Positions 1 to 49,195 of a DNA stretch of 49,490 nt are shown piece by piece. The translations under genes and the position numbers were made by a program. The notes below the pieces were generated by a model that saw nothing but the letters and a program-made list of their open reading frames with translations, was not told where the DNA came from and searched no databases. The first letter of the stretch is position 1; each line of letters opens with the position of its first letter. This DNA comes from Eubacteriales bacterium (GTDB taxonomy: Bacteria; Bacillota; Clostridia; Oscillospirales; CAG-272). The stretch covers positions 1-49,490 of the forward strand of contig JAZNAM010000004.1 of NCBI GenBank assembly GCA_045586515.1. Direction: 5' to 3'.

Positions 1-79
1 AAACATTACTCCAGAATTATTATAAGTATCTCATGCGATCAAAAAATCTTAATAACTGATATTTTTGTGAGGAACTTGT

Positions 80-739
80 ATGCAAGACCTTTTACAATAT
101 AAAACAGCACTTGATTCGAAATTGCACAATAAGTACATTGAACAACTTTCACTTTTGATGTTAAAATATATATGTCCAGATTCATATTCTAATCTTTCTC
201 TTGCTGATTCGCCAGATTTGCAATCATTGGATATGTCGATTGGAATAGAGGTTACCGAAGCTATTTCGCAGTCAATAGCAAGAATCGACGGTGAATTTGT
301 AAAGATGAGATTTGGTAAAAAAGAAACCGACGCTCGTTTATTGTGCAAGAAAAAAATAGAATTGAATGGTGGGGAAGTTGATGATATTTCTCTTTCATAT
401 CCACCAATCACTTCGAAAGAAGAAATTAAAATTTTTCAAAATGCAGTTCAACGAAAAATGCCACTGTTACCGACCTATCGAGATAAAGGATTTCAAAAAG
501 TCGGATTGTTTGTTTTTTATGATCAGCCACCTATTCCATTCGATTTTGCCGATTCTTTAGAATGGTTTGCTGAAATTCAAAGAAAATATCATGATAATTA
601 TGATTTTTTATTTTTTGGCTACCACTGCGGAATAATTCAATACGATTTCAAAAAAATGATCTTTGACACATATAGAATAGGACAAAGTGCTTTTCACAAT
701 ATGTGTATATTGGCACGAAATGAAGTTGAGAAAAAATAA
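80..739 (+). CDS. Hypothetical protein, possible PD-(D/E)XK restriction-endonuclease-like fold (AT-rich accessory gene)
   Basis: 219-aa ORF with GAGGA RBS; motif SPDLQS..IGIEVT resembles the PD..(D/E)xK-type core; sequence visibly AT-rich relative to the window. Confidence 0.5.
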   Translation: MQDLLQYKTALDSKLHNKYIEQLSLLMLKYICPDSYSNLSLADSPDLQSLDMSIGIEVTEAISQSIARIDGEFVKMRFGKKETDARLLCKKKIELNGGEVDDISLSYPPITSKEEIKIFQNAVQRKMPLLPTYRDKGFQKVGLFVFYDQPPIPFDFADSLEWFAEIQRKYHDNYDFLFFGYHCGIIQYDFKKMIFDTYRIGQSAFHNMCILARNEVEKK

Positions 740-751
740 CAAAATATATTG

Positions 752-955
752 AAAAATCCCTAAAACCGTGTTATAATAGGTTTGTCACACAAACTGAATA
801 ATCGGATTTTAGGGGTATTTTCTTTATTGGGGGATACTATACCCTTTTTTCGGCTACGCTTAAGTTATATGAGTTTGGCAAAAATGCGAACTCCACTAAC
901 TTGAGTGTAGCGAGTAATATCTCTATTCCGATTAGTTTGTGTGACAACAATCGGA
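752..955. repeat. Nested inverted-repeat region, possible IS-end/MITE remnant
   Basis: Perfect 14-bp IR TTGTCACACAAACT 782-795 / AGTTTGTGTGACAA 934-947; hairpin GCTACGCTTAAGTTA 853-867 / TAACTTGAGTGTAGC 897-911; local stems around each IR copy. Confidence 0.5.
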
Positions 956-1020
956 GTTTGCGTTTTTCGGTGTGCATAGCTTCGGTTGTGCACACCTTTT
1001 TGTTTTTGGAGGAAAAGATT

Positions 1021-2226
1021 ATGAAAAAAACGTGTTCAATTTGTAAAAGCGAATTGGATATGGGCATTACCCGTATTGTACAAGTTAAAGGTAAAGATTG
1101 GGTCTGTAGAGAATGTCTAAAAAAGGCAAACATATCTGTTATGTCAGCTTCGGGAAAAACTGCAAGTGAAATCTCTGCGTTAGTACCATTGCAAAGTGAA
1201 AATGATAACAAATATTGCTCCAACTGTGGCTCTCAATTGAATGGAGCAAACTTTTGCCCACAATGCGGAGCTGCCATTTATGCAGCAACCGAAATGAAAA
1301 GCAATCAAATTAGCACACCTATGGCATCTAATTATGATGTGAATATGCCACAGAAAAACAAATCTATGGGTGAAGCTATTAAAAAGGGACTTGCAATTTC
1401 GGCTATCGTTTTAGTTTTGTTTTTTGGAATAATAGTTGCTCTGGCATTGTTATTGCCTGAAAATGGACAACCTGATTTAGAAAGCCAGCAAACAAACACA
1501 GAAAGCGAAATTATTTTGAAACCATCTCCGATAGCATTTATAAATCGAACCTATGAAATAGATTATGTTGGCGGAGTACAATGGACGTTTGAAATAAAGA
1601 ACAATTCAGAAAAAGAAATAAAATATGTAACTCTTGAGTGGAGTTGCTGTGATTCGGTAGGCGAACCGATATACGACGATATTACAGGGAAAAATATTGT
1701 TGGTTATAAATTCCCAGGTCCTTGGGAAAGTGGCGAAACAAAGCGTTATCAAACCGACAATACTTCAAAATTTTACAACCACGCCTATGCACAATCAAAG
1801 CTTGTCACCATAAAAGTCGAATTCATGGATGGAGAAATAGTCGATATCAATAGCAAAGAATACACGGATATTTTTAAAACAACTTCGTTAAACATTCCAA
1901 CATTACCCTATACAGTTAATAAAAATGCAGATCAACCTTGTTGCACAATAACAAAAATAGAATATGAGTTTTTTGATTATACCACTTATCACACTGACGG
2001 AAAATTTATAACTAATGATTTTGAAATCAGTATATACGGTGAGTATGATGAAGAATTTGCCCCAGATCAATATCAATTAATTGGTAAATTGATTAATTCT
2101 AAGGGTGAGACGATTCTTGACTTTATTGTAGATTTTGACTATTCAGGACGTTATCATAAGCGCGCCCTTGATAGTATAGATCCCGGAGAAACGTATACAT
2201 TAGAGTTTTGTTATGAAAGCAAATAA
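1021..2226 (+). CDS. Double zinc-ribbon, single-TM membrane protein with extracellular beta-rich domain(s)
   Basis: ATG 1021 after GGAGG; CSIC..CREC and YCSNCG..FCPQCG zinc ribbons; hydrophobic helix AISAIVLVLFFGIIVALALLL; acidic C-terminal domain. Confidence 0.7.
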   Translation: MKKTCSICKSELDMGITRIVQVKGKDWVCRECLKKANISVMSASGKTASEISALVPLQSENDNKYCSNCGSQLNGANFCPQCGAAIYAATEMKSNQISTPMASNYDVNMPQKNKSMGEAIKKGLAISAIVLVLFFGIIVALALLLPENGQPDLESQQTNTESEIILKPSPIAFINRTYEIDYVGGVQWTFEIKNNSEKEIKYVTLEWSCCDSVGEPIYDDITGKNIVGYKFPGPWESGETKRYQTDNTSKFYNHAYAQSKLVTIKVEFMDGEIVDINSKEYTDIFKTTSLNIPTLPYTVNKNADQPCCTITKIEYEFFDYTTYHTDGKFITNDFEISIYGEYDEEFAPDQYQLIGKLINSKGETILDFIVDFDYSGRYHKRALDSIDPGETYTLEFCYESK

Positions 2227-2241
2227 ATACACTTTTGAAAT

Positions 2242-2337
2242 TGGCATCTATTAAGGATGCACATAAAACCGCTTCAAAAGTTGCACCCCCCTTGATTTTA
2301 TTGACTTTCCCGTGGTGGCATCAATTTAGGATGCACA
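2242..2337. repeat. Pair of 22-bp imperfect direct repeats with GCATC-N7-GATGC dyad at the island boundary (att-like)
   Basis: TGGCATCTATTAAGGATGCACA 2242-2263 vs TGGCATCAATTTAGGATGCACA 2316-2337 (20/22), located at the AT-rich to GC-rich transition. Confidence 0.6.
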
Positions 2338-2383: not shown

Positions 2384-2449
2384 GCTTGCGGACGCGGCTT
2401 GTGCCGCGTGTCTTCCCGGGTTATGAGATCGACGAGCGTAGCTCGTTGG

Positions 2450-2563
2450 GGGAGTGCGGACACGCGCTGCCGGTGGCAGAAGCCGCGTGTCCGCACGAGT
2501 GGCCGCGGTCGAAAAAATCAAGGAAAGCGAGAGCCCGCAGATTTTTTCGTGCACCGCAACAGG
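2450..2563 (+). repeat. Structured ~114-nt non-coding element, copy 1 (homologous to 44588-44698)
   Basis: Ordered motifs GCGCTGCCGGTGGCAGA, GAGTGGCnGCnGTCG, AAGCGAG and GCAACAGG shared with copy 2; two long stems. Confidence 0.7.
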
Positions 2564-42217: not shown

Positions 42218-44278
42218 TCAAAGCTTCATGCATACGTTCCACGCACCCCAGATGACCGTGCGCAGATTGCCAACGCCTGCGGCATCGCCAATGACGTGTA
42301 CGTGGCGTCCCTTTTGCGAAAGAGGAGCGGGGTTGTAGCCAACCGAGAGAATAACGGAATCGCAAGGAACGTCAAATGTCTTGCCATCCTTATCTTTTAG
42401 CGTGACGCACGCTTCACCGATCTCGCACAGTGCGGTTTCAAGGTGTACCTGAACCTTGTTGGTCTTGAAGAAGTCACGCAGATAGCTGGTGTTGGCAAGA
42501 CAGATGCCCTTGGTGGTGATGAGGTCGTCTTGCATCTCCACGATGATGGGCGTTTGTCCCTTGAGGTAAAGATCATACGCGATCTCACAGCCCGTAAGAC
42601 CGCCACCGATCACTACGACAGTCTTGCCAACCGTCTTGTTGCCAAGCAGGTAATCAACTGCTTCCACGGCGCGCTCTGCTCCCTTTACGGGAATGCGCTT
42701 TGCGACAGCACCGGTTGCCACGATGATCTCGTCTGCGTCAAGCGACTTCGGGTCGGTGACTTCGGTGTTCAGCTTCACGTCGATGGGGTATTTGGAAAGC
42801 TCACGGATGTACCACGCGATAAGTGCCCGGTCCTTTTCTTTGAAGGAGGGGGCGGATGCGGCAATGAATACGCCACCGAGCGCGTTCGTCTTTTCATAGA
42901 GTGTGACCGCATGACCGCGTTTGGCGAGCAGGATTGCTGCCTCCATACCGCCGATACCGCCGCCGATCACGGCGATCTTCTTTGCCTTCTTTGCGGGGGC
43001 GACGTAGTATTTCTTGGACTGCATTGTTTCGGGGTTGAGTGCACAGCGTGCAAGTCCCATCGTGTCGGTGAGGTCCTGCGTGTTGGCGTGTCCTTTGGAG
43101 GAGGAGAAGTTGAAGCAGCCGCTATGGCAGCAGATGCAAGGTTTGATGTCCTCCAGTCTGTCCTCAATGAGCTTGGTGATCCACTGGGGGTCAACGAGGA
43201 ACTGACGGGCAACGCCCATGGCGTCGATCTTGCCCTCGGCAATCGCCTTTGCGGCAACGCCGGGATCCATTCTGCCCGCGCAAACAACGGGGATGTCCAC
43301 GAATTTCTTGATGTGTGCAACGTCCTCGAGGTTGCAGTTCTCGGGCATGTACATCGGGGGATGCGCCCAATACCAGGAGTCGTACGTGCCGTTGTCGGCA
43401 TTCAGCATATCGTAGCCCGCGTCCTGCAAATACTTCGCGGCGCGTTCGGACTCTTCCATGTTGCGCCCGACCTCGACGTAGTCCTCACCGGGCATCGCAC
43501 CCTCGCAAAAGCCCTTGAGCTTGGACTCGACCGAGTAGCGTAGCGATACGGGATAGTCCTCGCCACACGCGGCTTTGATAGCCTTGACGATTTCGGCAGC
43601 AAAGCGGTAGCGGTTCTCAAAGCTGCCACCGTACTCGTCGGTGCGCTTGTTGAAGAATTCGATGGCGAACTGATCGAGCAGGTAGCCCTCGTGTACCGCG
43701 TGTACCTCAACGCCGTCCACGCCCGCATCGCGGCAAAGCTTTGCGGTCTTGGCGAACGCCTCGATGATCTCGTGAATCTGCTCTACCGTGATTTCGGGGC
43801 ATTCAATATCATGCGCCCAACGAGAGGGCTGGGGAGAGGGAGAGGCGAGCTCGTGCGAGGTGTCGATAATGGGCTTGATCAGTGTGCGCGTGAACTTGTT
43901 TTTATGTAGGGGTGCGATAAGATCCGTGATCGCCCAGGAGCGGCCCATACCCGCGGTGAGCTGAATGAAGAGCTTCGCGCCCGTCTTGTGGATCTCGTCC
44001 ATAAACTCTTTCAGGTCCTTGAACATCTTGGGGTTTTGCCAGAGCCACTTGCCCCAGAAGGTGTCGCGCACCGGGGCGATGCCGGGGATGATCAAGCCAA
44101 CGTTGTTGTTGGCACGCTCAAGGAAGAGCTTTGCCGCTTCCTTGTCGAAGTGGCAGCCCGTCAGTTCAAACCATCCGAACAGGGAAGTGCCACCCATGGG
44201 GCACATCACGATGCGGTTCTTGATCTCCACGTTGCCGATCTTCCAAGGGGTAAATAACGCTTCGTAGTTTTCGTTCAT
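42218..44278 (-). CDS. 2-enoate reductase-like NADH:flavin oxidoreductase (OYE barrel + 4Fe-4S + FAD/NAD domain)
   Basis: KNRIVMCPMG, EVHAVHEGYLLDQF, RTDEYGGS, CICCHSGC..C, two GGG dinucleotide-binding motifs. Confidence 0.9.
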   Translation of the reverse strand: MNENYEALFTPWKIGNVEIKNRIVMCPMGGTSLFGWFELTGCHFDKEAAKLFLERANNNVGLIIPGIAPVRDTFWGKWLWQNPKMFKDLKEFMDEIHKTGAKLFIQLTAGMGRSWAITDLIAPLHKNKFTRTLIKPIIDTSHELASPSPQPSRWAHDIECPEITVEQIHEIIEAFAKTAKLCRDAGVDGVEVHAVHEGYLLDQFAIEFFNKRTDEYGGSFENRYRFAAEIVKAIKAACGEDYPVSLRYSVESKLKGFCEGAMPGEDYVEVGRNMEESERAAKYLQDAGYDMLNADNGTYDSWYWAHPPMYMPENCNLEDVAHIKKFVDIPVVCAGRMDPGVAAKAIAEGKIDAMGVARQFLVDPQWITKLIEDRLEDIKPCICCHSGCFNFSSSKGHANTQDLTDTMGLARCALNPETMQSKKYYVAPAKKAKKIAVIGGGIGGMEAAILLAKRGHAVTLYEKTNALGGVFIAASAPSFKEKDRALIAWYIRELSKYPIDVKLNTEVTDPKSLDADEIIVATGAVAKRIPVKGAERAVEAVDYLLGNKTVGKTVVVIGGGLTGCEIAYDLYLKGQTPIIVEMQDDLITTKGICLANTSYLRDFFKTNKVQVHLETALCEIGEACVTLKDKDGKTFDVPCDSVILSVGYNPAPLSQKGRHVHVIGDAAGVGNLRTVIWGAWNVCMKL

Positions 44279-44469
44279 GTTGTTTACCTATTGCCTTTCG
44301 TTGTAAATTACGATGTTGGTTGCAGTAACATGTAACTTTATTATATCGCGAAATCGCGCATGTGTCAACCGCATTTGGAAAGGCGAAACAAAAGCGTCAG
44401 GCGACACGCGGCGCACGATAAGTAGGGCGCAATTATCAAACATGCGCGCATCTTCTACGCAGCAACCGC

Positions 44470-44524
44470 ACCTGCGACTTCTACTTCCCGAACGTAGCGC
44501 TCTACCAAACTGAGCCACATCTCG
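44470..44524 (-). pseudogene. 5' 55-nt fragment of tRNA-Pro(CGG)
   Basis: 54/55 identical to 49141-49195; lacks the T loop, 3' T-stem strand and 3' acceptor strand. Confidence 0.85.
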
Positions 44525-44587
44525 ATATTTAATTTTGTTGCATAAGCAAGATGAACAAGGGGTGTTGGCGTGGCGCTACGCGCTCTT

Positions 44588-44698
44588 CCTGTTGCCGTTA
44601 CCGCATCGTGCTACGCTCGAATACTCGCTTGCACTCTGCGACGGCTGCCACTCCTTTTTGCTCGCTTACTCTGCCACCGGCAGCGCTCGCAAACGTCC
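44588..44698 (-). repeat. Structured ~111-nt element, copy 2, inserted in the D-loop of a tRNA-Pro fragment
   Basis: Flanked by tRNA nt 1-20 (44699-44718) and AGAGCGC (44580-44586); motifs shared with 2450-2563. Confidence 0.7.
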
Positions 44699-44829
44699 CC
44701 AAACTGAGCCACATCTCGATACTATTAAATTTTGAGGTTTTGCGGTTTCCTCGACCGTTTTGTCACGAGCGCCCCGAGGGCTGAACGCGCCGTCGCATAG
44801 TCGCTGTCTGTCGCTGCGGCAGGCTTGCT

Positions 44830-45038
44830 CCGTCAGCTCAAACCAACCGAACAGGGAAGTGCCGCCCATGGGGCACATCACGATGCGGTTCTTGATCTCC
44901 ACGTTGCCGATCTTCCAAGGGATAAATAACGCTTCGTAGTTTTCGTTTATGTCGTTTACCTATTGCCTTTCGTTATAAATTACGATGTTGGTTGTAGTAA
45001 CATGTAACTTTATTATATCGTGAAATCGCGCTTGTGTC
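44830..45038 (-). pseudogene. Diverged duplicate of the promoter and first ~40 codons of the enoate reductase gene
   Basis: Direct repeat of 44158-44366 (offset 672), about 10 substitutions, ATG changed to ATA. Confidence 0.9.
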
Positions 45039-49118: not shown

Positions 49119-49195
49119 TGGTCGAGATGACAGGATTCGAACCTGCGACTTCTACGTCCCGAACGTAGCGCTCTACCAAACTGAGCCACATCTCG
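49119..49195 (-). tRNA. tRNA-Pro (anticodon CGG), 77 nt, CCA encoded
   Basis: CGAGATGTGGCTCAGTTTGGTAGAGCGCTACGTTCGGGACGTAGAAGTCGCAGGTTCGAATCCTGTCATCTCGACCA folds as a cloverleaf. Confidence 0.97.

Follow-up and report, generated by a model that had tools for sequence, protein, structure and literature searches.

A gene-less repeat of two hairpins, here called EL, is widespread in the Clostridia and uncatalogued in Rfam. It occurs twice in the window—the whole 49,490-nt stretch of DNA analysed here—and one of these occurrences, copy A, sits directly behind the D-loop GG of a tRNA-Pro(CGG) gene fragment. We put the case for EL as a non-autonomous mobile element at about even. As such, EL would insert as a unit immediately 3′ of GG, mostly in tRNA-derived sequence, with D-loop G18G19, the variable-loop GG and the G run before the T loop as its targets, and with the following pyrimidine usually swapped for 1–3 mostly purine bases. 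The process would probably pass through a single-stranded intermediate (ssDNA or RNA/cDNA), the enzyme being supplied in trans. Selection would remove insertions from working tRNA genes, and copies would persist only where they are harmless: in truncated spare tRNA copies, in REP-like intergenic repeats and at the ends of small ORFs in mobile-element regions. Copy A would then be one step removed, an EL-bearing piece resembling a leader array having moved into the promoter region of an oxidoreductase gene.

Copy A, copy B and their surroundings

The features of the window that bear on EL are as follows.

2416–2450, plus strand: 5′ flank of copy B, made of initiator tRNA-Met pieces with a fold-back ending in GGG (alignment to tRNA-Met)
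2451–2563, plus strand: EL copy B, 113 nt, diverged, with compensatory changes that keep the stems (covariance-model score 109.3 bits)
44158–44366, minus strand: direct repeat 2, the working promoter and start of the oxidoreductase gene (promoter-like, 12/12)
44367–44469, minus strand: remainder of a 463-nt block, 103 nt, with no other copy in this genome
44470–44524, minus strand: second tRNA-Pro 5′ fragment, about nt 1–55, insert-free, ending in the T arm (Rfam partial tRNA, 22 bits, below cut-off)
44525–44587, minus strand: tail 3′ of copy A, consisting of A, AGAGCGC and a leader-like stretch (read from the sequence)
44588–44698, minus strand: EL copy A, two hairpins, 111 nt, GGACG...CAACAGG (covariance-model score 130.3 bits)
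44699–44718, minus strand: tRNA-Pro(CGG) 5′ fragment, nt 1–20, its last bases the D-loop GG (identity 20/20 to the gene)
44719–44829, minus strand: head of the 463-nt block, mostly present in the tRNA-Pro leader of a relative (G006)
44830–45038, minus strand: direct repeat 1, the oxidoreductase promoter, 5′UTR and about 40 codons, with ATG changed to ATA (95.2% over 209; promoter-like, 11/12)
49119–49195, minus strand: tRNA-Pro(CGG), the only intact tRNA gene in the window (ARAGORN and Rfam)

The initial annotation had described tRNA-Pro nt 1–20, a 111-nt insert and then A-AGAGCGC on the minus strand, and this was confirmed letter by letter. Positions 44718–44699 are identical at 20 of 20 bases to the gene at 49195. 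The window contains three exact matches to the 20-mer CGAGATGTGGCTCAGTTTGG, always on the minus strand (44718–44699, 44524–44505 and 49195–49176), and 100 shuffled sequences contained none; at 44718–44699 it is directly preceded by ATAT. Beyond the insert, AGAGCGC (44586–44580) corresponds to tRNA-Pro nt 22–28, where collinearity with the tRNA stops, and the tail runs on for about 55 nt to an AAATAT end like that found before the tRNA-Pro genes of relatives.

The host of copy A is a tRNA-gene fragment and no tRNA gene, since ARAGORN and Rfam detect only the tRNA-Pro(CGG) at 49195–49119 in the window. That gene is the sole one of its kind among the 36 tRNA genes of the assembly (1.46 Mb, 90 contigs). 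The annotated placement in a tRNA D loop stands for the GG position, but the carrier is a 5′ fragment 4.4 kb from the gene. The GG on both sides had been taken as a possible 2-bp target duplication; the right-hand GG is part of CAACAGG, with which the element itself regularly ends, and where the true tRNA has a T behind G19 the copy A junction has A, so the duplication falls away. Folding reproduced the claimed structure—stem A capped by CUGCC-GGU-GGCAG, a GAGUGGC linker and stem B with a 3-nt bulge—at a minimum free energy of −41.6 kcal/mol (z −2.33), with 4 of 200 shuffles equally stable.

Copy A belongs to a 463-nt block (44829–44367) flanked by 209-bp direct repeats that are 95.2% identical. 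The block lies upstream of an NADH:flavin oxidoreductase gene (42218–44278, minus strand), and the repeats are that gene's promoter, leader and about 40 codons. Part of the block head is 82% identical to a tRNA-Pro leader in a relative (G006:C43:8548–8687, locus L064), and the unit made of tRNA nt 1–20, EL and tail is 94% identical to contig C30 of the same genome, where a consensus promoter is followed by two or more such units at a period of 194 nt until the contig ends. Judging by these likenesses, the block is similar to a tRNA-Pro leader array and probably descends from one; with EL included, it now stands before the oxidoreductase gene, 4.4 kb from the intact tRNA-Pro gene. No empty orthologous site for it was found in relatives, which match only coding parts or EL itself. 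The left junction shares GACGG with the donor-like G006 sequence, a resemblance that hints at microhomology-mediated rearrangement.

The diverged second copy reported 42 kb away is real (2451–2563, plus strand; 109 bits with the model). Its fold reaches −54.4 kcal/mol (z −4.2), a value as good being found in none of 200 shuffles. Its 5′ flank holds antisense tRNA-Met nt 44–23 (20/22) followed by sense nt 20–28 (9/9), the sense piece extending by eye to nt 20–32. The two window copies are not the ends of one element, because the intervening 42 kb carries ordinary metabolic genes. GC content in window positions 1–2300 is 33–35%, against about 53% elsewhere in the window, and two ORFs there (80–739 and 901–2226) have no Pfam match; this stretch is possibly foreign DNA that stops just before copy B.

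Spread and conserved structure of the EL family

EL is 105–116 nt long, encodes no protein and is built from two hairpins with a conserved linker between them; in a longer variant, of about 160 nt, two additional hairpins lie between the stems. The junction strands GGAC, AAGGAGUGGCAG and CAACAGG are conserved, an internal loop contains tandem G-A, and copies differ in how variants of the two stems are combined, a sign of reassortment. This genome has six copies, five full and one broken by a contig end, and RNAalifold on the five full copies gave two stems with compensatory changes in 14 of 27 pairs.

A covariance model was built and other genomes were searched, showing EL to be a multi-copy family in many Clostridia. 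At E ≤ 0.01, 35 of 61 genomes were positive (this genome counted), including 27 of 36 from the same genus and 7 of 24 from other families of the order. Across the class, EL was found at E ≤ 1e-4 in 30 of 150 evenly drawn genomes and 22 of 106 genera, and it is thus common in gut Clostridia. The maximum was 28 matches in one genome (G030), many of them at contig ends. There (L021, L035–L038, L042) EL is a module of a larger mosaic repeat, in which terminator-like hairpins flank it with the motif CCCCGATAAATCAAAATTT on either side; this mosaic has many near-identical, contig-terminating copies.

The covariation check upheld the fold. Among 44 copies (43 distinct), 94.1% of cells were paired, compared with 72.3% in shuffles; double-sided changes affected 22 of 27 pairs, with none of 500 shuffles as high; and the covariation score of 0.496, against at most 0.095 with partners slid, comes from an alignment fitted to the model, which favours structure, although the margin is nonetheless large. 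G-U filled 14 and A-C 10 of 1111 cells, so there is no excess of G-U; since G-U is no commoner than A-C, the data are silent on RNA-level selection of the fold on this strand.

No Rfam 15 family matches EL, in keeping with the earlier failure to recognise it: the whole window at the gathering threshold returned tRNA only, positions 44350–44850 at E ≤ 10 returned partial tRNA only, and 13 other loci at E ≤ 0.1 gave no match over EL. Among the titles and abstract openings that literature searches returned, none describes such an element. The plasmids searched had no EL, and none of nine IMG/VR loci with the linker pattern matched the covariance model. A diverged copy also occurs in MT836571.1, a putative gut phage record, where it lies about 150 nt downstream of a gene for tRNA-Pro(TGG). 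Three sequencing runs contained small shares of the sampled words (0.04, 0.06 and 0.26); their Logan contigs are mostly 88–95% alike and so come from relatives, and the libraries possibly contain DNA. At one locus (L068, 1749–1823), a match to Gut-1 RNA (RF01706) lies 145 nt downstream of EL; its 41.9 bits fall short of the cut-off, which is 50.

Junctions, insertion and the search for a mobiliser

Inspection of the flanks bore out a tie to tRNA loops, with the junction directly after GG. A same-strand intact tRNA gene lies within 400 nt at 14 of 32 loci, 7 of 10 class-level loci hold a tRNA gene, and at additional loci tRNA pieces, read by eye, abut EL. In this genome, five of six copies have tRNA-derived flanks (three Pro, one Ser-CGA and one initiator Met). 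The 5′ flank ends in the D loop (tRNA nt 18–20) for Pro-CGG and three kinds of tRNA-Ser, at the variable-loop GG (nt 45) for Met, in the variable region with a TG end for Asn, and, for Trp, Arg, Glu and Ser-GCT, in the T arm, where a G run precedes the T loop. In the 3′ flank the tRNA sequence is taken up again 1–2 nt further on, behind an extra A, AA, G or GTA; at L014 this happens at Pro-TGG nt 21. The pyrimidine after GG is lost at the junctions, usually with 1–3 mostly purine bases in its stead, and GG is no target duplication at these sites either. Outside tRNA sequence, GG junctions occur in REP-like repeats (..TGTAGGG directly before EL) and at a CCTCCCTCC hairpin. The proposal of a mobile or structured element directed at the D-loop GG accordingly survives in its multi-copy nature, GG junction and discrete insertion, but the D loop is not the sole target.

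D-loop insertions are found in 5′ fragments upstream of the intact gene, while most of those in the T and variable loops occupy 3′ fragments on its downstream side, where the terminator is often duplicated too (L028, L018, L069); L070 and the first L069 unit are exceptions, with a T-loop insertion in a long 5′ fragment upstream of the gene. At many 3′-type copies, and at copy B, a short inverted copy of the adjacent tRNA segment precedes EL. These inverted pieces and the partial tRNA duplications are unexplained by simple insertion. Some spare fragments end at the anticodon loop (L019, L023 and L065; nt 20–41/42) and the second window fragment ends in the T arm; both places are crossover points of tRNA-integrating islands, which suggests that at least some fragments predate the entry of EL. 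A flank helix closing a three-way junction is visible in C64, L075, L033 and L068, and is unenriched overall (mean −14.5 kcal/mol versus −13.7 for mismatched controls; p = 0.15, n = 51).

The tRNA-Pro(CGG) leader is a hotspot in several genomes (L061 in G036, L063 in G029, L064 in G006 and L060 in G003), with unrelated inserts of about 150 nt behind tRNA nt 13 or nt 19 and, in G003 (L060), a 256-nt tandem duplication that includes tRNA nt 1–39. In G026 this leader is without any fragment.

Discrete insertion is documented by one filled site and two empty counterparts. In a conjugative-element-like region of G010, ..CCCGCAGG is followed by EL (167 nt) and then by GAGGATCA..; in G023, ..CCCGCAGG adjoins CGGATCG.., and in G002, ..CCGAACG adjoins CGGATCA... 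There is no target duplication, and the base following GG differs. This is a single clean comparison of filled and empty sites, with flanks 74–77% identical between species, so the junction change (C to GA) could be later drift. A small zinc-ribbon ORF is intact in G007; in its G034 counterpart (L012), EL has taken the place of about 75 nt, and with them of the protein's second CxxC, so that this is a replacement and no simple insertion. Two ORF-embedded copies, L040 (G010:C63) and L012 (G034:C26), are read through in frame (..GTFASA..), and at L030 (G025:C18) EL, likewise read in that frame, forms the end of an integrase gene. Head-to-tail tandems with a 111-nt period occur in G028, G035, G018 and G038; their arrangement would fit insertion behind EL's own terminal GG. 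For the copy on C64, an exact 25-mer beside it had no match, and so no empty site, in metagenome contigs, and relatives gave no orthologous empty site, only coding parts or EL matching.

EL shows no terminal inverted repeat, target duplication or ORF of its own, and the 85 neighbouring ORFs include no conserved neighbour, being unrelated housekeeping or mobile-element genes. An autonomous form with an ORF between the halves was sought and rejected: all 35 matches to the 5′ half (five genomes) are complete elements or elements cut by a contig end. Mobiliser profiles were run on this genome (G000), G030, G010, G018 and G003, which comprise three EL-rich relatives and one EL-free one besides our own. 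The five are MAGs that are 78–98% complete, and because of this incompleteness the absence of a transposase is weak evidence. The TnpB Zn-ribbon (PF07282) and the IS110 Transposase_20 domain (PF02371) were each found in none of the five. The suggested Y1/HUH partner is not supported, PF01797 giving one weak match in the five genomes (G030, 21.5 bits) and none in G000, G010 or G018. The resolvase domain (PF00239) was present in G010, G003 and G018, in long open frames of 529–578 aa, and absent from G000 and G030. RVT_1 was present in two of the five; in this genome it belongs to a diversity-generating retroelement (DGR). That DGR lies at C30:10558–13972 (L045), about 12 kb from the EL array on the same contig and unlinked to it, and comprises a target-protein C-terminus (..YWWLRSP..), an Avd-like ORF, an Asn-rich template repeat and a 332-aa reverse transcriptase.

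Several known families were rejected in turn. Against a TnpB/IscB omega RNA speak the absence of the TnpB domain PF07282 from the five genomes and flanks that are collinear tRNA on both sides, and against an IS110/IS1111 bridge RNA the absence of PF02371 and internal loops that are conserved and do not vary with the target. IS607 membership would call for a small serine recombinase; none was found in the five genomes, PF00239 occurring only in the 529–578-aa frames. A retron ncRNA was dismissed because no reverse transcriptase is encoded among the 85 neighbouring ORFs and the genome's one such enzyme is that of the DGR. Likenesses to HDV-like and hammerhead ribozymes, K-turns, attC sites, retrons and single-strand origins were also set aside, the covarying stems being a poor fit; the models applied were those of Rfam.

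Alternative readings and known systems

Removal at the RNA level, proposed earlier as a way of rebuilding the tRNA, would not restore one, since the sequence behind the insert lacks the 3′ two-thirds of the molecule. An intron-like insert spliced out to yield a working tRNA-Pro is likewise scarcely credible: its D-loop position and the flanking D-stem strands GCTC and GAGC would suit such an insert, but the anticodon arm, T arm and 3′ acceptor strand are absent beyond AGAGCGC, ARAGORN and Rfam find no tRNA at the insert, an intact tRNA-Pro(CGG) is present in the genome and the other loci examined are likewise without complete exons. At copy A this reading is refuted by the missing 3′ part. It is possible, if rather doubtful, that EL is primarily a functional structured RNA (protein-binding or regulatory, for example), transcribed with tRNA operons, whose promoters are strong, and copied by local duplication and recombination instead of transposition. 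The strong covariation, the conserved junction strands and the tandem G-A of the internal loop are what such an RNA would show, although the G-U and A-C counts carry no strand-specific RNA signature and flank pairing is no stronger than in the mismatched controls. Of 15 loci with a tRNA gene no more than 400 nt away, EL lies on the tRNA's strand in 14, and it does so in all seven class-level loci that hold one; it stands between a consensus promoter and the tRNA at C30, C50 and in relatives, and in copy A follows a duplicated promoter-like site; yet 3′-type copies lie beyond the tRNA terminator, others lie within ORFs and REP-like repeats, and a genome may hold up to 28. Many species of the genus have EL at the tRNA-Pro(CGG) locus, with differing stem B variants there, a pattern that could reflect vertical descent under functional selection instead of mobility. 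The mobile and RNA readings are compatible, and a functional role may coexist with mobility.

Two further readings concern how copies arise. The units could be relics or integrase-less derivatives of tyrosine-integrase tRNA elements—att scars or cis-mobilisable elements—with EL as a conserved arm beside the att site; we regard this as unlikely. Direct repeats of tRNA pieces bracket the 194-nt unit and occur in arrays (C30; window positions 44718 and 44524), one copy (L030) lies between two integrase genes, and fragments end at the anticodon loop (L019, L023, L065) or T arm (the second window fragment), which are known crossover sites in the available part of PMC4383910. The same part of that source accepts the configuration of the native loci, with 5′ fragments upstream and 3′ fragments downstream, but rejects that of the window, where 5′ fragments lie downstream of the intact gene, and the D loop is absent from the Islander crossover subsites that it gives (PMC4383910). 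EL moreover lies within tRNA-like sequence, with tRNA bases on both sides, the same element occurs in at least ten tRNA species as well as at non-tRNA sites, and most copies have no nearby integrase. The att-relic reading accounts for the fragments and not for EL's place inside them. A somewhat less likely course again is spread through RNA, in which the EL transcript would be fused to pieces of tRNA in their exposed loops, beside uridines that normally carry modifications (20, 47 or 54), and the chimera copied to DNA and recombined beside the tRNA gene. Its hints are the lost U, the fold-backs, the T-run ends and the reassortment of stems at the conserved linker: the U after GG is lost or misread at D- and variable-loop junctions (Pro-CGG, Pro-TGG, three tRNA-Ser loci and Met), T54–C56 is altered at T-loop junctions, the duplicated 3′ piece at L028 stops at the terminator T-run, and the fold-back copies of the adjacent tRNA piece have the look of snap-back priming, at which they may hint.

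If EL is mobile, its targets are the best-conserved loops of essential genes, it survives in their spare copies alone, and it does so without any transposase family tested; its mobiliser, if found, could point to a new mechanism of insertion or to cleavage of tRNA-like GG sites by the host. Were spread through RNA true, bacteria would have in EL an equivalent of SINE- or R2-like retroposition, or an RNA that inserts itself. Because assemblies break at EL and leave it at contig ends, because Rfam lacks it and because it can be read through within proteins, annotation pipelines currently mislabel or miss it.

Among known systems, the PATEs of IS200/IS605 and the REP/BIME repeats are small and protein-less, with subterminal hairpins and neither inverted repeats nor target duplication. 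EL resembles them in hairpins kept by compensatory change, in a short fixed motif at insertion, in its many intergenic copies and in forming mosaics with other repeats (G030). Set against the features of PATEs in particular, the two hairpins and the post-GG junction agree and the replaced base at the 3′ junction disagrees. EL differs from PATE and REP elements in that the EL-rich genomes tested have no Y1 transposase, RAYT or TnpB, bar the weak Y1 match in G030, and in that its target is GG in tRNA loops, with the next base replaced and partial tRNA duplications alongside. Elements of the IS607 family insert at or between GG, and EL likewise has GG at both junctions and no inverted repeats; unlike them it has no ORF, and the resolvase domain is absent in G000 and G030. 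Rickettsia palindromic elements are structured repeats able to sit in frame inside ORFs, as do the EL copies L040, L012 and L030, but EL lies mostly in tRNA-derived DNA, and the two are likened by description, not by sequence.

Islands in tRNA genes offer the remaining comparison. In the available part of the Islander account, 3760 of 3919 islands have a 3′ fragment and 159 a 5′ fragment, and the crossover subsites are the anticodon loop and the T-loop/junction (PMC4383910). As with such islands and their att scars, EL is accompanied by truncated tRNA copies beside an intact gene, 5′ copies upstream and 3′ copies downstream, and by tandem arrays; at native loci a directly repeated tRNA segment bounds the unit and the intact gene forms one end, which is not so in the window, where the 5′ fragments lie downstream. 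Unlike an island, the EL unit measures 110–200 nt, carries no integrase, interrupts the fragment, takes a D-loop position and uses non-tRNA sites too. EL is best grouped with the small non-autonomous structured repeat elements, and there is a modest chance that its mechanism is new.
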